This document shows positions 3,129 through 20,154 of a stretch of 22,339 nucleotides of DNA, piece after piece (the stretch's first letter is position 1; every line of letters begins with the position of its first letter). A program made the position numbers and the translations under genes. The stretch lies in the UHGV virus genome UHGV-0337617; one strand, given 5' to 3'. The notes beneath the pieces are model-generated. The model worked only from the letters and a program-made list of their open reading frames with translations, searched no databases and had not been told where the DNA came from. Source of the DNA: a virus.

Positions 3129-4442
3129 TTAACTTACTGATTTTAATAAGCCTCTGGTGTCACTTTGGTGACTATGGGGCATCATTGGGACATAATCTGT
3201 CAGCTTCTGATTCAGCATTGCGATCTGTTCTGCATTGCTGTCAGTCATCCATGCTCCGTATACATTGAATACCATCTGGGCACTTGCATGGCCCATCTGG
3301 CTGGCAATGAAGCTTGGGTTTGCTCCGGCAGATAATGACCAGCACGCATAAGTGTGTCGTGACTGGTATGCCTTTCGATGCCTGATCCCTGCACGCTTAA
3401 TGGCTGTTTCCCATGAGTCACCTACAGAATCGACTTTGTAGACAAAACCTACCTGTTCGCTTTTTCTAACCACTTGAGGGTTAAACACGAAAGTACATTC
3501 ATGGTTCACTGAACGTCCATATTCACGTAGTTGCACCTTGATGTTGTACTGCTTACCCAGTCTTGTCATTTCAGCCTGATTTTTCAGGACACTGATAGCG
3601 GGCTGGATAAGGTGCACAACCCTGTTTGTGCTTGCTTCAGTTTTCGGTAGAGTGAACTCACCAAGTTTCGTATAATTGCGCCTGATGGTAATTGTTCCTG
3701 CCTTCAGATCGATATCTTCCCAGGCCAGGGAGACCAGTTCACCGTGACGCATTCCTGTGTACACAGCCAATGACCACAGGTTTTTCGTCTGCTGATGTCG
3801 GCAAGCATCTATCAGGCGAATAAATTCGTCACGAGTTAGCGGATCTGGCTCTGCCCTGGCTCTTTTAAGAGGCTTAATTCCCTGGAAGGGATTTGCTTCT
3901 AAGTAACCGTGATCTGCAGCAAACTGAAACATTCCAGCGATTGTCGTCATGTAATAATTTACAGTAACGACGCTCCGTCCTTTTGCTGCTGCTTTGTTTT
4001 TCGTTGAATTCTGATACCCGGTCAGCAAATCTTTCCTGATATACAGCAATTCCTCTTTGGTTACCGATGACACCAGTTTACTGCCTCCAATTTTCGGAAC
4101 CATCGTTCTTGCAACGGATTCATAGCGATTGAATGCATTTGCAGAGATTTCCATTCGTTTCAGATCCAGCCACTTTTCTTCAAGTTCCTTCACCGTAATT
4201 TCTTTTTTACTTACCCCAAAAGCCTGAAGGTTGGGGGAGTCAGGGAACTGTGCAGCATAATCAAAGCTTCCTGTGCGGATGGCAAAACATACTGATGTCC
4301 GCAGTTCCCCGGCGATCTTCCTGTTCTTGGCAGTGTCAGGGACACCAAGATTTTCCCTGACACGTTTACCTTTAAAATTAAACCAGATGCGTAATGTGCC
4401 GCCGTGGTTTTCGACGCCTGTTGGATATTTGACTTTATCCAT
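3129..4442 (-). CDS. int: Tyrosine recombinase / phage integrase
   Basis: 437 aa; C-terminal catalytic region with R...HxxR...Y pattern (GMRHGELVSL, RHTYACW, NVYGAW); GGAGGT RBS; xis-like gene immediately upstream. Confidence 0.9.
   Translation of the reverse strand: MDKVKYPTGVENHGGTLRIWFNFKGKRVRENLGVPDTAKNRKIAGELRTSVCFAIRTGSFDYAAQFPDSPNLQAFGVSKKEITVKELEEKWLDLKRMEISANAFNRYESVARTMVPKIGGSKLVSSVTKEELLYIRKDLLTGYQNSTKNKAAAKGRSVVTVNYYMTTIAGMFQFAADHGYLEANPFQGIKPLKRARAEPDPLTRDEFIRLIDACRHQQTKNLWSLAVYTGMRHGELVSLAWEDIDLKAGTITIRRNYTKLGEFTLPKTEASTNRVVHLIQPAISVLKNQAEMTRLGKQYNIKVQLREYGRSVNHECTFVFNPQVVRKSEQVGFVYKVDSVGDSWETAIKRAGIRHRKAYQSRHTYACWSLSAGANPSFIASQMGHASAQMVFNVYGAWMTDSNAEQIAMLNQKLTDYVPMMPHSHQSDTRGLLKSVS
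3174..3192. repeat. Second copy of TGGGGCAT(C)ATTGGGACA repeat at the 3' end of int; candidate arm-type site
   Basis: Matches 2965-2982 except one base; lies inside the last codons of int. Confidence 0.4.
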
Positions 4443-4892: not shown

Positions 4893-5135
4893 TTACTTCC
4901 TTTTCATGGCCCGTAATTTTTTCAGATGAGCCTCCTGCTCTGTTTCTGCCAGAATTTGTCGGTATTCCTGGTGATCAATCCGTTCAAACAGTTCATTGAA
5001 ATCGTTTATTTTTACTGACTGTGTTCGCCCATCAATTCTTCTGTACAACACAGTGTTGTTTATGCAGCGAATAATTATTACCGGGTAACCGGCACTGTCG
5101 GTATACAGTTGTCCCTGATTAATCAAAGCGAACAT
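4893..5135 (-). CDS. Hypothetical protein (81 aa from internal Met; longest ORF would start at 5258)
   Basis: Start at Met42 avoids a 92-nt overlap with the upstream gene; GAGAGCAGGAG upstream. Confidence 0.45.
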   Translation of the reverse strand: MFALINQGQLYTDSAGYPVIIIRCINNTVLYRRIDGRTQSVKINDFNELFERIDHQEYRQILAETEQEAHLKKLRAMKRK

Positions 5136-5579: not shown

Positions 5580-6407
5580 TTATTTAACCTGGATAAATGG
5601 TGTATTGGCACCGCTGGTCATGTATTGCGGCAGCGTGCCGTTCCATTTATTGATGGCTTCCAGCTCCATAACACCGGGGTTCTGACGCAGAGCTTCACCG
5701 CGTAAACGAATAGCATCGGCTTCAGCCTGGGCTTTTGTGCGAATCGCATCAGCCTGTCCGGCAGCTTCCGCGCGCAACATGTTGGCTTCCGCTTCGCGCT
5801 GTTTTACTTCCTGCTCGCGTTGCAGAGTTTTCTGGTTCGCCGTGACTTTGGCATTAATGCTGTCGATAACAGTAGGCGGGTACTCCGGCTTACCCACATA
5901 TGAGAGGCTTATTACCTGAATACCGATGGGCGTCATTTCTTCCTGAATGTCTTTAAGAGCTGCATCCAGCAGCTCAGACTTGCCGCCGTCGATAAATTTG
6001 TCGGTGGTCATTTTGCTGGCCAGTCGGTTGAGTGCGTCGGCTATCTTCTGGCGCAGGTCGGTGTCGGTAATGTCGTCCACGCCTTTGCGGTAGGTCTGAA
6101 AGACTGTGGTAACTTTGGATGGATCAACCTTGTAGGCTACTCCGATGTGGTAACCAATGGTTGTTCCATCGCTCATCTGGAAACTGAATGGATCATCGTA
6201 GGTCTTCATCTGCTTAAAGGTCGGGAAGATATAAACTTCAGTGTTCCAGCCTGTCCAGTAGCGACCAACACCGACCACTTCACCGACGCCTTTGTCGTCG
6301 CCAAGTTTGTTGACTTTGATGCCCACATTACCAGGCTCAACACGATCACAACCGACAAGGCCAATGGCAGGCAGAACAATGGCTAAAGAAAAAATAATTT
6401 TTTTCAT
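5580..6407 (-). CDS. SPFH/band-7 (prohibitin/stomatin-like) domain lipoprotein
   Basis: 275 aa; signal peptide with lipobox LVGC; central band-7-like region and C-terminal Ala/Glu/Arg-rich coiled coil (AEANMLRAEAAGQADAIRTKAQAEADAIR). Confidence 0.75.
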   Translation of the reverse strand: MKKIIFSLAIVLPAIGLVGCDRVEPGNVGIKVNKLGDDKGVGEVVGVGRYWTGWNTEVYIFPTFKQMKTYDDPFSFQMSDGTTIGYHIGVAYKVDPSKVTTVFQTYRKGVDDITDTDLRQKIADALNRLASKMTTDKFIDGGKSELLDAALKDIQEEMTPIGIQVISLSYVGKPEYPPTVIDSINAKVTANQKTLQREQEVKQREAEANMLRAEAAGQADAIRTKAQAEADAIRLRGEALRQNPGVMELEAINKWNGTLPQYMTSGANTPFIQVK

Positions 6408-6652: not shown

Positions 6653-7045
6653 TCAGAATGGTTTTGTTGCCATCAGTTCGTAATATCCGGCGCTCCATGT
6701 GTCATATTTTCTGAACCATTTTTCTGTATACTGTTTCCTGGCGATGAGTCTGCGCAGTCGTCTGATTGTTCGCTGGTGTGCGCGGGTGTACTCTGTGGTT
6801 GATTCTCCACGTTTCCATATTTCATTCCCGTTGAAGATAAAACGCTTGTCAGGATGGCGTTGTCGGAATCCTGAACGTTCAAAAGCGCGGGTGGTCATAA
6901 AGAATGCCAGGTAACGAATTGCCGTTTTTCGAGTGAGGCATTTTTTTGTTCTTCCGTGATGTGTTACAAAAAATAACGGGCCGACGGGTGTATCATGTTT
7001 CTGTAATGCCTGGTCAATGGCGCTGGCGGTGCGGTTGTCGATCAT
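6653..7045 (-). CDS. Hypothetical basic protein (130 aa)
   Basis: ORF in leftward operon; Arg/Lys-rich C-terminus. Confidence 0.5.
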   Translation of the reverse strand: MIDNRTASAIDQALQKHDTPVGPLFFVTHHGRTKKCLTRKTAIRYLAFFMTTRAFERSGFRQRHPDKRFIFNGNEIWKRGESTTEYTRAHQRTIRRLRRLIARKQYTEKWFRKYDTWSAGYYELMATKPF

Positions 7046-7260
7046 TTCTTTATTTCTCCCGAATAACGTTCATGACTCATTATTTCCCAGTTCCGGCCGT
7101 CGTCTTTCGATAACAGCCGCCAGCGACGGTTAACCTTCAGACTGAGATATCCGTTGCGCTGTATCCGATGCGGGAATATACGTCGGCATCTGTACCGCCG
7201 CAGGACCAGCAACGCCTGCTGGTGGACCCACTCAGGAATTCGCGTTGCTGTTAATGTCAC
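7042..7260 (-). CDS. Hypothetical small basic protein (72 aa)
   Basis: 4-nt overlap with downstream gene; Arg-rich. Confidence 0.45.
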   Translation of the reverse strand: MTLTATRIPEWVHQQALLVLRRYRCRRIFPHRIQRNGYLSLKVNRRWRLLSKDDGRNWEIMSHERYSGEIKK

Positions 7261-7809: not shown

Positions 7810-7923
7810 TTATTTCCCGTATGCTTTACGCAGAAATAAGCAGGCAATATGCATGTAATTTTCACCGTATTGTGCAATAAGACAGGCGGTCTTGTGTGAT
7901 GCCATATTCTTTATAAAAGTCAT
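7810..7923 (-). CDS. Small hypothetical ORF (37 aa), not in supplied track
   Basis: GGAGG RBS 7 nt upstream of ATG; stop 3 nt before the next gene start; MTFIKNMASHKTACLIAQYGENYMHIACLFLRKAYGK. Confidence 0.3.
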   Translation of the reverse strand: MTFIKNMASHKTACLIAQYGENYMHIACLFLRKAYGK

Positions 7924-8001
7924 AATAAATCCTCCTGTGGATTAAGATTGTAACAATCCCCGGCGATAAAACCGCAATAAACGTTCAGAGCATATTTGTT
8001 G

Positions 8002-8367
8002 TTATTGCGCTAATTCTTTTTCGGCAGCAGTTTTTGCATACTCACATGCAAAATTCAGAATTTCGCTGCCGAGTGTTTTCGTTTCGTGATTACTGGACAT
8101 ATGTAATACCTGTGTTGCATGCAATAAATGATAAACATTTACCGCAAATGAATCAGGCTCCAGACAAATGCCTTCGTAATTATCTTGCTGTGAGGTTGTT
8201 TCTGTCATTGCTTCTGAAGTGCATGCGAGCCTGTTTTTGACAATTCTCTTTCCTCTAATCACTATATCGGCAACATCTATTGCCTTTACAACCTCCGGGA
8301 GAAGTTCCGGGTTTGTATAATCAAAGTCATCAACATGGAGAACAGTTATGTTTTCGAACTTTTTCAT
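8002..8367 (-). CDS. Hypothetical protein (121 aa)
   Basis: ORF diverging from the 8547..8774 gene across a 179-bp intergenic region. Confidence 0.5.
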   Translation of the reverse strand: MKKFENITVLHVDDFDYTNPELLPEVVKAIDVADIVIRGKRIVKNRLACTSEAMTETTSQQDNYEGICLEPDSFAVNVYHLLHATQVLHMSSNHETKTLGSEILNFACEYAKTAAEKELAQ

Positions 8368-8546
8368 GGCTTCCTCAGCTGACTTATATGTCCTGCTATA
8401 TAGCGAGTCTCAGAAGTGTTTTCATATTGAGACTGTTTCCGCAATGATTGATAATCAGTTACCGGATGCTTATCCGTGTCCGGCGCACGACCACACGTAG
8501 CCGCGTGTTGGTCCCCATTTTCAATTCAGCTCTCAATGGAGGATAA

Positions 8547-8774
8547 ATGATTAACGCAGAGCAACTCGAAAAAGAGATTTCAGAACTCAAAAAAGAATTA
8601 ATTTGGCACAAAGTTGCTATCTCCGCATTAATTCGTCAGGTAGTTTCACCTGAAGATAAAGTAAAGTTTATGAAGCAGTTCTCATCTTCATCAAAGGAGT
8701 TTTTCACTGACGAGGTTCATCCAGAGGCTGGATTTTGGATCCGTCAATTATTTTCGCAAGATAAGCGTAAATAG
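8547..8774 (+). CDS. Hypothetical protein (75 aa), N-terminal coiled-coil-like
   Basis: GGAGG RBS 7 nt upstream of ATG; rightward gene inside an otherwise leftward region. Confidence 0.5.
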   Translation: MINAEQLEKEISELKKELIWHKVAISALIRQVVSPEDKVKFMKQFSSSSKEFFTDEVHPEAGFWIRQLFSQDKRK

Positions 8775-8946
8775 CGTCATCAATACTCGCGTCGCTCTTG
8801 AATTTAAGAGCGATGCTCTTTATATCCTCTGAAATTATTACCAGATCACCATATGTTATATTTTTATTATTGCGCGCAGTGCTTTTTTGTATGAAATCAA
8901 GCAATTCACCAATGAGACAAATATGGTAAGCATCACAGTTTTTCAT
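8704..8946 (-). CDS. Hypothetical protein (80 aa from Met15), coupled to the upstream HTH gene
   Basis: ATGA overlap with the stop of 8943..9359; AAGGA RBS; 3' end overlaps convergent 8547..8774 by 71 nt. Confidence 0.4.
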   Translation of the reverse strand: MKNCDAYHICLIGELLDFIQKSTARNNKNITYGDLVIISEDIKSIALKFKSDASIDDAIYAYLAKIIDGSKIQPLDEPRQ

Positions 8947-9359
8947 GCGCAGATATCCTTTGCTGCCGTTTCGCCAGTTAACAGCCACATCGGATCGCAG
9001 CCAAGAATATTTGCCAGTGGGATAAGCATACTGATAGTTGGTTCATACTCTCCGCTCTCCCACTGGATGATAATTTCTTCATCGAGATCGAGCAGCCTGG
9101 CGAGTTCGGCGGTTGTTAAGCCGCAGGCTTCGCGTTGGGTGCGAAGACGGTTGTTGATTGCAGAATTTTTGTTCTGTAAAAGCATTGCTGACGATAGCTT
9201 TCTGGATATGCTATTTGTCATATCCCATGCCAGTCCTGCGCATGACTCTATATCGCTAGAGAGCGTAGCATCAGGTGTTGCTTTTGCTATTAGTGTAATG
9301 AGGCTGCCGAGGTTTTTCAGTTCTTCGAGACAGTCAAGAGTTGTAGCTTTATTGATCAT
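8943..9359 (-). CDS. HTH (XRE-type) DNA-binding protein with the helix-turn-helix at the C-terminus
   Basis: 138 aa; C-terminal LTTAELARLLDLDEEIIIQWESGEYEPTISMLIPLANILGCDPMWLL looks like an XRE HTH; first gene leftward of the OL operator cluster. Confidence 0.6.
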   Translation of the reverse strand: MINKATTLDCLEELKNLGSLITLIAKATPDATLSSDIESCAGLAWDMTNSISRKLSSAMLLQNKNSAINNRLRTQREACGLTTAELARLLDLDEEIIIQWESGEYEPTISMLIPLANILGCDPMWLLTGETAAKDICA

Positions 9360-9364
9360 GAGAT

Positions 9365-9442
9365 GATACCTCAGTTACGAACTTTGTTTTATGGTAACTA
9401 AGGTATCAAGGTGTGGCAAGTGATTTTTGATACTTTGGTTTC
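9365..9442. promoter_or_regulatory. Putative left operator (three 14-bp sites, GATAC-N4-GTNNC class)
   Basis: GATACCTCAGTTAC (9365-9378), GATACCTTAGTTAC (reverse, 9394-9407), GATACTTTGGTTTC (9429-9442); 32-bp centre spacing. Confidence 0.5.
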
Positions 9443-9462
9443 TTTTTGTGTTTTGTGTCTGG

Positions 9463-10119
9463 TCAGAAAATATCCCACCTGGCATCAACCACAACACCTA
9501 CTATTTCGCAATCATTGTCCATTTCTATGATTGGATATTGTGGATTAAGGGGCTTTAGAAACGCCTTTCCCATGTCAGAAATATATTTTTTGAATGTTGC
9601 TTCATTGGTGGATTTTTTTCTGGCGATGACGTAACACCCTGAAAAAACTTCTTTATCTGGGTTGACAAGGATCGACATTCCTTCAGGAAATGTTATTCCT
9701 ACGGGCGAAGTCATTGAGTCTCCGTGCACTTCCAGCCAGAACCCCCTCTCACCAGCGTATTTTACAGAATGCCTCCAATTATCCTGATCATACATGTTGT
9801 AGTCATCACCAGAAGTTGCGAATAATCCTGCCTGAACCCAGTTAATTACAGGGTAAGAGTGTGCTGTGTCTCTCTGTGGGCAGCTCTTAACATTATTTTC
9901 CCAATGCTTATCTTTTTCATCTCCGTTCTGAAGCCACTGCGGTGAACACCGCAGTGCAGCTGCAACTTTAAAAAGGGTGTCACCGTTGAAACTTTTTGTA
10001 AGGCCTTGCTCGGCTTTACTGATTGCAACTCTGGTGATCCCAGCTTTTTTAGCCAACGCATCTTGTGTTAACCCAGCTTTTTGCCGTGCGTTGATGAGAC
10101 GTTCACCTAAAGACTTCAT
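9463..10119 (-). CDS. cI: cI-like phage repressor with HTH and S24 (LexA-like) autopeptidase domain
   Basis: C-terminal FWLEVHGDSMTSP...FKK...LNPQYP resembles lambda cI; N-terminal HTH (MKSLGERLINARQKAGLTQDALAKKAGI); GAGGAG RBS before Met26 of the longest ORF. Confidence 0.85.
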   Translation of the reverse strand: MKSLGERLINARQKAGLTQDALAKKAGITRVAISKAEQGLTKSFNGDTLFKVAAALRCSPQWLQNGDEKDKHWENNVKSCPQRDTAHSYPVINWVQAGLFATSGDDYNMYDQDNWRHSVKYAGERGFWLEVHGDSMTSPVGITFPEGMSILVNPDKEVFSGCYVIARKKSTNEATFKKYISDMGKAFLKPLNPQYPIIEMDNDCEIVGVVVDARWDIF

Positions 10120-10143
10120 TTTTCTTCTCCTCTCATGGCTGTT

Positions 10144-10213
10144 GATACTAAAGTAACAGAATTTCTTGATACTTTGGATTCCCGCGGTTAACATCGTTGG
10201 ATAACAAAGTATC
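10144..10213. promoter_or_regulatory. Putative right operator (three 14-bp sites of the same class)
   Basis: GATACTAAAGTAAC (10144-10157), GATACTTTGGATTC (10168-10181), GATAACAAAGTATC (10200-10213, palindromic); between divergent cI and rightward genes. Confidence 0.55.
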
Positions 10214-11162: not shown

Positions 11163-11384
11163 AAAAAAGCCGGGAGTAACCCGGCTCACTCAACATCAAT
11201 AACGGGGAGCTGTTTCGCATAAAACGGCTCCGAAACATCCAAGAACAGTTCTAAAGATATCAGCAGCTATATGATCATTTCAAGACCAAATATTGATTCT
11301 GCAATTTCGGGACGTTACACTGTCTCCGCACCTTATAAAGCGGGTGCCGGGGGTCGCAGCCCGGAATTGTCAACGGCGATATAT

Positions 11385-11404
11385 GACGCGCCAGCGTCTT
11401 TTTT
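11385..11404 (+). terminator. Putative intrinsic terminator inside the early-right operon
   Basis: GACGC-GCCA-GCGTC hairpin followed by TTTTTT. Confidence 0.4.
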
Positions 11405-11570
11405 ATCGTCCGCGCTCACGCACGCCAGAATTATGGTGGGCTGGGCAGGGGAGCCGAAAGGCTCGCCGGTCTCCGTTGACGCCGGTACTGCGAACCCTGT
11501 TCAGTCTGCCACCAGTGAGTTTCGCAGCTCCGGTGGTGGAAGTTTTCCACAGTCAACGGAGGCTGCCATC

Positions 11571-12122
11571 ATGGCTACGATCCCAACCCTCACTCAACCT
11601 GAAATTGCCATCGTTGATGGTCAGGCTGTTACTTCATCCCTGGCTGTTGCCAACTTCTTCTCCAAGCGTCATGACGATGTACTGAAAAAGATCCGCACGC
11701 TTGAATGCTCCGCATCATTCACTGCCCGCAATTTTTCGGTGAGTGATTACACCGATTGCACAGGCCGCAAACTACCTTGCTATCAAATCACCCGTGATGG
11801 CTTCGCGTTCCTTGCTATGGGCTTTACTGGCAAACGTGCAGCCCGGTTCAAAGAGGCATACATCAACGCCTTTAACCTGATGGAGAAGAGTTTATCAGGT
11901 GCCGATGCGTCTGATATGTCAGCTGTCGCACGAAACGCCAGAGGCGTATACCTGCATTTGCGTGAAATCCATCAAATCTGGACAAGCCAGCTTTATCCAA
12001 TGCTTAAGGCCGTTGAATCTCCGCTGGCTAGCAAACTGTACGACCGTGTTGGTGATGCTGTTTTTGGCGCTGCACTTGTTGATTCCAGGCTGAATGGTTC
12101 TGACAAGGAGGTTCGCCCATGA
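11571..12122 (+). CDS. Rha-family phage regulatory protein (second copy, divergent sequence)
   Basis: GGAGG 8 nt upstream of ATG at 11571; PEIAIVDGQAVTSSLAVANFFSKRHDDVLKKIRTL is Rha-like; the ORF is open upstream to 11271 but that extension is low-complexity. Confidence 0.6.
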   Translation: MATIPTLTQPEIAIVDGQAVTSSLAVANFFSKRHDDVLKKIRTLECSASFTARNFSVSDYTDCTGRKLPCYQITRDGFAFLAMGFTGKRAARFKEAYINAFNLMEKSLSGADASDMSAVARNARGVYLHLREIHQIWTSQLYPMLKAVESPLASKLYDRVGDAVFGAALVDSRLNGSDKEVRP

Positions 12123-19462: not shown

Positions 19463-19538
19463 GGCCCTTTAGCTCAGTGGTGAGAGCGAGCGACTCATAA
19501 TCGCCAGGTCGCTGGTTCAAATCCAGCAAGGGCCACCA
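19463..19538 (+). tRNA. tRNA with CAT anticodon (Ile2/Met type; ileZ-like)
   Basis: Hand-folded cloverleaf: acceptor GGCCCTT/AAGGGCC, D-stem GCTC/GAGC, anticodon loop CTCATAA, T-arm GCTGG-TTCAAAT-CCAGC, 3' CCA. Confidence 0.8.
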
Positions 19539-19547
19539 TATCACATA

Positions 19548-19624
19548 CCGCCATTAGCTCATCGGGATAGAGCGCCAGCCTTCGAAGCTGGTTGCGCGGG
19601 GTTCGAGTCCTCGATGGCGGTCCA
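19548..19624 (+). tRNA. tRNA-Arg (anticodon TCG; argN-like)
   Basis: Acceptor CCGCCAT/ATGGCGG, anticodon stem CCAGC/GCTGG with loop CTTCGAA, T-arm CGGGG-TTCGAGT-CCTCG, 3' CCA. Confidence 0.8.
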
Positions 19625-19637
19625 TTATCTGTACCCT

Positions 19638-19714
19638 GCGTTGTTAGCTCAGCCGGACAGAGCAATTGCCTTCTAAGCAATCGGTCACTGGTTCGAATCC
19701 AGTACAACGCGCCA
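19638..19714 (+). tRNA. tRNA-Arg (anticodon TCT; argO-like)
   Basis: Acceptor GCGTTGT/ACAACGC, anticodon loop CTTCTAA, T-arm ACTGG-TTCGAAT-CCAGT, 3' CCA. Confidence 0.8.
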
Positions 19715-19753: not shown

Positions 19754-19952
19754 AAATGTCTCACAATTCAGACGGTTGACAGTTGTCTGTTTTGCGGGGA
19801 GTTTGTTAAAAGAAACTGGCATGGTGAATCCCCCTGTGCGGAGGGGCAATCAGCGAGTAGGTATATGGGATAATCGCGGATTCAGGTGCTGGTACTGAAT
19901 TCACCGGGAGGCACCCGGCACCATGCAGTTGACTGAAACCATGTATACTCTC

Positions 19953-19983
19953 AGGCCCCACGCACATGTGTTGGGGCCTTTTT
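19953..19983 (+). terminator. Putative intrinsic terminator upstream of the lysis cassette
   Basis: GGCCCCA / TGGGGCC perfect 7-bp stem with 11-nt loop, followed by TTTTT. Confidence 0.5.
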
Positions 19984-20154
19984 ACATGCAAAAAAAAGCC
20001 CGCATATGGATACGGGCGGCAAGGAACAAAAAACGTGAAGTGATCTATTCAGCCAGTGGATAATACCCTGACGTTACCATATTGCGCAATCGCGCATTCT
20101 TTCTTTTTCGCTCCCCTTATAACTACGCCATCCGTTCGCTGCGGAGGTGAGGCT

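Follow-up and report, generated by a model that had tools for sequence, protein, structure and literature searches.

The 22,339-nt stretch UHGV-0337617 (hereafter the window, in which all positions are counted) is a lambdoid prophage, identical to a region of Escherichia coli ZH063 and about 93% identical to the Stx2e phage phiP27. An earlier note had singled out two genes diverging from a common spacer, a 121-amino-acid (aa) open reading frame (ORF) on the minus strand (8002..8367) and a 75-aa ORF on the plus strand (8547..8774), and had read them, together with an inverted repeat between them, as a single independently regulated accessory insertion. Its coordinates are exact: the spacer occupies 8368..8546 (179 bp), and the repeat arms AGTCTCA (8406-8412) and TGAGACT (8428-8434) lie 15 nt apart. 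The 75-aa gene does run against its surroundings, the neighbours being leftward in the annotation of the identical ZH063 region by the Prokaryotic Genome Annotation Pipeline (PGAP). Comparison with related phages points to a different unit, however. By sequence, the locus sits at a mosaic junction within the pL operon, the leftward early operon, of a lambdoid prophage resembling phiP27, and the 75-aa gene, here called P75, lies with a structured leader RNA in an insert that excludes the 121-aa gene, the homologue of phiP27 L08. The features are as follows, a strand being given where one was assigned.

8002..8367, minus strand: L08 (phiP27 L08 homologue), 121 aa, a backbone gene of the leftward early operon
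8368..8454: spacer belonging to the backbone, with very little variation, holding the inverted repeat and, from the rightward promoter, the -35 and five of the six -10 bases
8406..8434: inverted repeat AGTCTCA-N15-TGAGACT, its right arm overlapping the -35 hexamer of the rightward promoter
8427..8455, plus strand: predicted sigma-70-like promoter TTGAGA-17-GATAAT, 10 of 12 consensus positions, the insert starting with the last T of the -10 (8455)
8455..8970: mosaic insert, relative to PhiR49_2, SF-088, MS8345 and A34, with its right edge at about 8950-8970
8458..8550, plus strand: structured 5′ leader of the P75 mRNA (predicted fold), covariance model score 98.9 bits, E = 3.6e-22, one copy in the window
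8463-8484, 8490-8514, and 8515-8520 with 8536-8541, plus strand: predicted leader hairpins 1, 2 and 3, the third pairing an anti-Shine-Dalgarno (anti-SD) with the Shine-Dalgarno (SD) sequence ahead of the start codon at 8547
8547..8774, plus strand: P75, a 75-aa all-helical orphan protein (phrog_20080; PGAP WP_000606214.1), the cargo of the rightward unit
8704..8946, minus strand: M80, an 80-aa ORF (phrog_23054) whose ATG overlaps the L10 stop (ATGA) and whose 3′ end overlaps P75 by 71 nt
8789..8816, plus strand: predicted intrinsic-terminator hairpin of 12 bp, then UCUUUAUAU, inside the M80 ORF, with a U-rich tail to 8825
8943..9359, minus strand: L10, an Xre-type helix-turn-helix (HTH) regulator of a 'CII-like' PHROG, 138 aa, the first gene after pL
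9360..9462, minus strand: oL/pL region, with cI-type operators at 9365-9378, 9394-9407 and 9429-9442 and a promoter-like site at 9419-9391

The relatives PhiR49_2, SF-088, MS8345 and A34 share 7900-8454 with the window at 73-98% identity and everything from 8971 onward at 92-99.8%, and lack 8455-8970 (BLAST breakpoints 8454/8455 and 8970/8971); opposite the 516 bp of the insert they have about 156 bp, partly a longer 3′ end of L10. Because homology runs to 8454 and resumes at 8971, L08, the repeat, the -35 and five of the six -10 bases belong to the backbone, and the insert contains P75, its leader, the terminator and the leftward ORF M80. The insert is present in 24 and absent from 76 of the 100 viral contigs that contain the spacer, and it occurs in 54 of 5426 complete E. 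coli genomes, as two sequence types. The same insert is joined to two different L10 alleles, variation beginning at 8952, which places its right edge near 8950-8970. The idea of an accessory insertion thus survives for the 75-aa gene, which is variably present among related prophages, and fails for the 121-aa gene and the repeat, which are found with or without it and are separated from it by the homology break at 8454/8455; the two genes do not form one module, and the pair by itself is ordinary prophage mosaicism. A third junction form, seen in five IMG/VR haplotypes (L229, L230, L243, L281 and L282), has neither spacer nor repeat and couples a 138-aa L10 with the tail KPTGGDTCA directly to L08 through ATGA. 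The window has the same ATGA junction, but there it leads into M80; M80 and L08 both start with ATGAAAAA, a resemblance that hints at how the insert was joined.

That a gene oriented against its operon must have its own promoter had been argued in the earlier note, and a sigma-70-like promoter is indeed predicted across the left breakpoint, together with a predicted terminator downstream. The backbone would contribute the -35 and five -10 bases, the insert the final T; relatives that lack the insert have GATAAA or GAGAGA at the -10 and fail the same promoter scan. The hexamer completed at the junction would be a compact example of an insertion creating a promoter. In phages without the insert (SF-088, L006 2056-2140; also L002 and L009) we noticed a plus-strand ORF of about 27 codons (MFACTLKGEAAIMSPLVLVLPQKSFAR), partly hydrophobic and antisense to the L10 tail, that begins where the weakened rightward promoter would initiate; its length is not kept in A34. 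The terminator hairpin downstream of P75 has a folding energy of -19.2 kcal/mol (z = -3.9, equalled in 0 of 200 shuffles), and its stem is retained in the second haplotype through a G.U to A-U change. Since the opposite strand has no U-tract, leftward transcription should pass it, making the terminator one-directional.

Both ORFs of the insert carry coding signatures. The ratio of nonsynonymous to synonymous differences per site (pN/pS) is 0.24 for the part of P75 that does not overlap M80, against at least 1.8 in four of five off-frames; the fifth, an antisense frame whose third codon positions coincide with those of P75, gives 0.20, a value to be expected there. M80 is open in 18 of 18 haplotypes with a pN/pS of 0.20, against 0.6-1.4 in its off-frames. 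Pooled codon-position counts (5/6/7) had suggested a spurious ORF, a suggestion overturned by pairwise dN/dS. Distribution is equally narrow for the two: P75 forms six clusters among 5.8e9 proteins, and M80, which is not called by PGAP, forms only five, all of them at least 80% identical. An exhaustive HMMER search of 1.84e9 representatives returned five matches to P75, all orthologues, and no credible remote homologue. The AlphaFold2 (AF2) model of P75 consists of three generic helices with a mean predicted local distance difference test score (pLDDT) of 67. By these signatures, P75 and M80 are E. coli-restricted orphans under purifying selection.

The most conserved part of the rightward unit lies ahead of the coding sequence. 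Between 8455 and the start codon, 93 bp are shared with O157:H7 strain EDL933, and identity to the E. coli genomes listed is 81-89%; judged from a sample among those matches, the carriers are apparently several hundred genomes, and one 'hypothetical protein' is the only annotation found under the matches listed. An invariant core occurs in at least 120 IMG/VR contigs, as 33 variants that all end in AATGGAGGATAAAATG. What follows it changes: about ten mutually unrelated ORF families of 57-101 aa lie downstream, two of them YmfI-family/GhoS-like and the others without family assignment. What precedes it changes too: in each of seven unrelated contexts, a -10-like hexamer stands 6-8 nt ahead of the point where conservation begins. 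Within the P75 cassette the leader has 4 variable sites in 92 nt, as against a synonymous divergence (pS) of 0.23, and the EDL933 type is identical at 68 of 75 positions where pS is 0.3-0.4. The homologous stretch begins right at the predicted transcription start and stops at the start codon, which speaks for selection acting on the RNA, not on promoter or protein. On sequence grounds, we regard the leader as a portable RNA element used by about ten unrelated small proteins.

RNAalifold and a model drawn by hand give the same three hairpins. In the leader alignment, hairpin 3 pairs CUCCAUU with the AAUGGAG of the SD region around a loop of varying sequence. Of the alignment cells, 95% pair, as against 24-48% when the partners are slid. 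Hairpin 2 contains two compensatory pairs (A-U to U-A and C-G to U-A), and its G.U intermediates would pair on the plus strand only. A covariance model built from the leader alignment (R1) detected degenerate copies in K-12 Qin, E. albertii and phage P13374 and no copy in relatives that lack the insert. The Qin copy of K-12 MG1655 (L134, about 5073-5134, minus strand) lies between ydfC and dicF on the strand opposite the dicBF operon and consists of a truncated promoter region and hairpin 1 (27 bits); E. albertii has the same remnant. The leader is absent upstream of Rac sieB and e14 ymfI in K-12. A scan of genome contigs with the 16-mer CCGTGTCCGGCGCACG gave nearly all chance matches in high-GC genomes, the sole real match being in E. 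albertii. Rfam 15 gave no relevant leader match in 8300-8900, whether at the gathering score or at E up to 5, and only DicF at the EDL933 locus. No description of the leader turned up in the literature searched, including by a substring of the leader, and the Pas small RNAs (sRNAs; bioRxiv 10.64898/2026.05.13.724894) are unrelated late-region sRNAs. Annotated in none of the RefSeq and phage records examined and absent from Rfam 15, the leader is apparently undescribed.

The position of the unit relative to the immunity region bears on when P75 might be made. The backbone order is pL/oL (9360-9462), L10, L08 and further small genes, all leftward. The repressor gene (S24 peptidase plus HTH) occupies 9463-10119 by the phiP27/PGAP start, which gives 218 aa, the longest ORF being 243 aa (9463-10194); a cro-like gene faces it across oR. 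Operators of the GATAC-N4-GTTAC type number 10 pattern matches, against 1.5 expected, and are also found at oR (10144). The second operator set (9365-9442) separates the repressor gene from the leftward gene that follows and so places pL upstream of L10. With one mismatch or none, GATAM-N4-GTTAC matches three times at oL, once at oR and not at all in 8368-8546. A candidate cI operator at the P75 promoter, GATAATCAGTTAC (8450-8462, at the -10 and start), was rejected because it fails the operator pattern and has the wrong spacing. The same stretch, though one base shorter, resembles the oL half-operators GATACCTCAGTTAC and GATACCTTAGTTAC, which is probably coincidence.

We consider it probable that P75 is a moron-type, counter-oriented accessory unit placed within the pL operon; for its architecture we hold this with some assurance, and for its regulation with less. 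Transcription would start near 8461 at the promoter completed by the junction and would proceed through a leader of about 90 nt with three hairpins and the 75-aa ORF to the one-directional terminator at 8789-8816. Translation of P75 would be set by the leader hairpin that sequesters the SD (CCCCAUU with AAUGGAG). As no cI-operator pattern match lies at its promoter, P75 would probably be expressed in the lysogen. When pL fires, leftward transcription would cross the whole unit, and the resulting antisense RNA, complementary to the leader and mRNA of P75, should silence the gene. M80, supplied by the insert, would be translationally coupled to the truncated L10.

Several observations weigh against this reading. 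The promoter and its start site, the terminator and the fold of the leader have the status of predictions. In phiP27 the P75 frame is broken by a frameshift, the L09 annotated there being another reading frame, so that phage can dispense with P75. Pfam, NCBIfam and PADLOC hold no credible family for P75, and its sole strong PHROG match in the profile searches, phrog_20080, is uncharacterised. The spacer is highly conserved even where the rightward -10 is spoiled, which suggests that its main role may concern L08, not P75. Covariation in the leader is thin, with two compensatory pairs, a count reached by 37 of 500 shuffles; the leader sequences share 85% identity, and the pattern used to find them had already prescribed the 3′ arm of hairpin 1. 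In the window the anti-SD (CCCCAUU) has a C.A mismatch, with C at 8515, so that SD sequestration may be weak there. The base composition of the insert (GC 0.37-0.42) does not differ from that of its flanks (0.37-0.48).

The leader is most often met in a second setting. In dicB-type prophages the leader unit lies between dicF and a leftward gene whose product combines a 50-aa N-domain that is conserved (MEFKDLP...) with a C-terminal tail that measures 0-160 aa. The tail is coding (pN/pS = 0.29) and varies together with the rightward cargo. The N-domain is encoded in 552 viral contigs. Of 80 loci retrieved, 73 have the leader, always on the opposite strand and convergent; these loci were selected solely by the leftward MEFKDLP-domain gene, independently of the leader, before the covariance model was applied, and the annotated contexts agree on the orientation. 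By its sequence organization the locus resembles a polymorphic two-gene hotspot bracketed by two conserved anchors. In a more ambitious reading, which we advance tentatively and think somewhat improbable, the leader would be a widespread cis-regulatory RNA new to description that marks a hypervariable early-left hotspot and acts both as an SD/antisense switch and as a recombination anchor for cargo exchange. It would be the anchor on one side, the MEFKDLP gene (L10 in the window) that on the other, and the swapped blocks would comprise a rightward small protein and a leftward tail or ORF. The cargo pairs could then be effector and immunity, or exclusion and anti-exclusion. Upstream of the leader in dicB-type loci (e.g. 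L004, 2945-3000), a further 60 bp or so are conserved and carry CCCTGA-N4-TCAGGG, which overlaps a putative -35 (TTTTCA-17-TAAACT), much as the window repeat overlaps its own -35. The EDL933 locus (L004, about 3249-3347, plus strand) also contains, in another frame, a strongly hydrophobic 32-codon ORF (MALLILIVLLVAAALLVFPYNYQSIQSGPCSA) that resembles a type I toxin by sequence and overlaps the 3′ ends of the 69-aa cargo and of the leftward partner gene.

The convergent arrangement raises the question of whether P75 and M80 belong together as cognate antagonists, as an effector with its immunity protein or a toxin with its antidote. M80 would be made from pL upon induction and neutralised by P75 expressed from the rightward promoter, the hotspot then being a polymorphic effector/immunity locus. 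The immunity genes of pore-forming colicins lie on the opposite strand, and the present arrangement resembles theirs. The two ORFs overlap by 71 nt, always occur together with an equally narrow distribution and are both under purifying selection, and the MEFKDLP tail of the dicB-type loci covaries with the cargo and is itself constrained. Such co-occurrence may, however, be plain linkage within a 0.5-kb block. Moreover, the tail module EKLKHVIALLLEDAKRLQQ adjoins two unrelated cargos and two cargo types pair with tail-less partners, so cognate pairing is not established. Searches for toxin, antitoxin or defence families with PADLOC and Pfam gave nothing for P75 and only a weak DUF2290 match for M80 (E = 0.0066), L10 being a generic HTH protein; neither P75 nor M80 is hydrophobic, and PGAP does not call M80. 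We therefore regard an antagonistic pair as unlikely.

The role of the spacer may involve L10 and L08. L10 matches Pfam HTH_3 (E = 2.5e-11), phrog_4739 (positions 1-136 of 167) and, including the HTH, the 'CII-like' phrog_4836 (E = 4e-40). Truncated to 138 aa in the window, it reaches 166-182 aa in relatives that lack the insert, and 265 aa in A34. L08, whose profile match is phrog_5451 (E = 1.7e-82), consists of an N-terminal module of about 50 aa and a C-terminal helical-hairpin domain. Its full length appears real: all 121 residues are kept in homologues down to 46% identity, pN/pS against A34 is 0.60 for codons 1-53 and 0.44 for codons 54-121, and the direct ATGA coupling to L10 in the third junction form uses the long start. 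The 68-aa version that PGAP calls in ZH063 (8002-8208) corresponds to the C-terminal domain, and this domain is also found as a protein by itself. Over residues 69-115, L08 shares 45% identity (E = 3e-9) with the part of the PhiR49_2-type L10 that does not bind DNA, its N-terminal domain, and L08 matches phrog_4836 only in the N-terminal, non-HTH part of the profile (E = 3.7e-4). Judged by these matches, the C-terminal domain of L08 is a paralogue of the N-terminal domain of L10-type regulators; L08 would thus share a domain with these 'CII-like' proteins, yet would not be a DNA-binding member. The shared domain ties L08 to L10, not to P75, and L08 may act through it. The AF2 model of L08 has a pLDDT of 64 overall and about 85 for residues 74-120, a predicted helical hairpin, and a Foldseek search of the PDB with this moderately confident model gave nothing below E = 2. 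Relatives recovered by retrieving related loci with L08 were all at least 95% identical.

The 87-nt stretch of spacer that belongs to the backbone has 15 variants among 100 loci and is identical at 82 of 87 positions between the window and A34, whereas 40-68% of adjacent L08 synonymous sites differ (pS 0.40-0.68). By this comparison the conservation of the spacer, unlike its 7-bp repeat, exceeds chance. A perfect 7-bp inverted repeat with a loop of 3-30 nt arises in 16% of 5000 dinucleotide-preserving shuffles of the spacer and in 45 of the 124 real 179-nt tiles of the window, and is thus within chance expectation. In phiP27 (AGTCCCA) and strain A34 (TGAGACC) one arm of the repeat is altered, with no compensating change in the other. 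It may still be a protein-binding site overlapping the -35. The spacer could, for example, be a site for the L10 HTH regulator, or for L08 through the shared domain, that feeds back on pL by way of the rightward, antisense promoter, P75 having been placed behind it. Lambda CII activates antisense promoters in a comparable manner. The 'CII-like' match of L10, the position of the spacer adjoining both L10 and L08, its conservation beyond that of synonymous sites, the overlap of the -35 with one arm and the 22 bp between arm centres, about two helical turns, are consistent with such a site. Nevertheless, phages that lack the insert have a defective -10, the repeat has lost its perfect match in some relatives and the spacer is missing from five haplotypes; we think this proposal quite unlikely.

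A reading that builds on the one from which the analysis began, in which L08 and P75 are a divergent, co-regulated accessory module with the repeat as shared operator, draws on the divergence of the two genes from one strongly conserved spacer and on the overlap of the right arm with the rightward -35. It is largely refuted by the presence/absence data, L08 and the repeat occurring without P75 in 76 of 100 loci with the homology break between them. The direct coupling of L08 to L10 in five haplotypes and their common domain also speak against it, as do the chance-level repeat, its lack of compensating changes and the failure of a promoter scan to find a good leftward promoter in the spacer; we give it very little credence. 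Hardly credible, finally, is the suggestion that the 90-nt block acts on the minus strand, in processing, anti-termination or stability of the pL transcript, with the rightward ORFs incidental. In its favour, the block always lies inside a leftward early operon, either strand can form a hairpin, and K-12 Qin and phage P13374 retain degenerate copies that no complete ORF follows; in dicB-type prophages the block falls within the 'long untranslated region' ahead of dicF that is processed by RNase E and RNase III (PMC5069750). Against it, four G.U/U.G pairs of hairpin 2 would turn into A.C mismatches if the minus strand were the RNA, and the fold of that strand does not surpass shuffles (z = -1.0). 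The block also closes with a perfect SD and ATG at fixed spacing and is preceded by a -10-like hexamer in seven contexts, and the cargo ORFs are under purifying selection.

Among known systems, the P75 unit, read as an accessory insertion, most resembles the morons of lambdoid phages, autonomous accessory transcription units between backbone genes in the Juhala/Hendrix concept. Like them it is present or absent at one site among close relatives (24 versus 76 loci) and comprises a small gene in independent orientation with its own predicted terminator and its own predicted promoter, half of it backbone. It differs in that the promoter is not carried by the insert and would be completed at the junction, in sharing its leader with about ten unrelated cargos, in having a second, opposite ORF (M80) and in lacking a distinct base composition, which is frequent in morons and not obligatory. 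A second parallel is provided by sieB of lambda and Rac and by sieB/esc of P22, which run against pL near the immunity region from a promoter of their own; in P22, translation is switched by the pL-derived sas RNA, antisense to the leader. P75 has the same orientation and a similar position, but it is predicted to be a 75-aa soluble helical protein, whereas SieB is a membrane protein of about 160-190 aa. No SieB family match to P75 was found in Pfam, PHROGs, NCBIfam or PADLOC, the exhaustive HMMER search returned only P75 orthologues, and Rac sieB has no leader upstream. In K-12 Rac (L133, 6406-6503, minus strand), RefSeq annotates the sRNA KilS between kilR and the opposite-strand sieB, a position that corresponds to that of dicF in Qin-type prophages; the literature searched yielded nothing on KilS. 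Two of the leader cargo families match the YmfI family NF051477 (E = 8e-32 and 7e-13), one of them weakly GhoS, and K-12 ymfI of e14 adjoins the repressor gene and is likewise oriented against the genes around it; there is no match of P75 to either family, and e14 ymfI has no leader copy.

Leaders that sequester the SD are known from RNA thermometers, the lambda cIII leader and type I toxins such as hok. The P75 leader would be comparable in the predicted pairing of an anti-SD with the ribosome-binding site, and its 5′-terminal hairpins could stabilise the mRNA. It differs in that the P75 unit has neither an Rfam match nor a hydrophobic toxin ORF, and a gene dedicated to an antisense sRNA was not found. 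The dicBF operon (ydfABC-dicF-dicB) contains the majority of leader copies, which lie between the gene at the ydfB/ydfC position and dicF and on the opposite strand; the window phage, in contrast, has neither dicF nor dicB, and its leader stands between the HTH gene and L08. The published description of dicBF treats the interval as untranslated and mentions no opposite-strand gene (PMC5069750). A literature search on the L08-L10 region of phiP27 gave nothing relevant.

Other features of the prophage were noted in passing. The same leftward operon contains an SPFH-domain lipoprotein gene (5580-6407, minus strand) and a small ORF (7042-7260) that PGAP names ParE family toxin-like. At 11328-11516 on the plus strand, Rfam isrK (58.7 bits) and C4 antisense RNA (78.8 bits) occur in tandem inside or at the start of a Rha/Ant-like gene (11271-12122), a P1/P7-type c4-ant immunity element in a lambdoid prophage. 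Three transfer RNA genes on the plus strand (19463-19535, 19548-19621 and 19638-19711) are followed by the prophage sRNA STnc100 (19790-19989, 140 bits).

The locus had previously gone unremarked as variable; in dicB-type prophages it falls within the described long untranslated region upstream of dicF. What the comparison brings out there and in the window is a leader common to about ten unrelated small genes, including in O157:H7. If this leader is a common switch, it would offer a single handle on the timing of a class of lysogen-expressed orphan genes, and a sequence tag by which more of them might be found.

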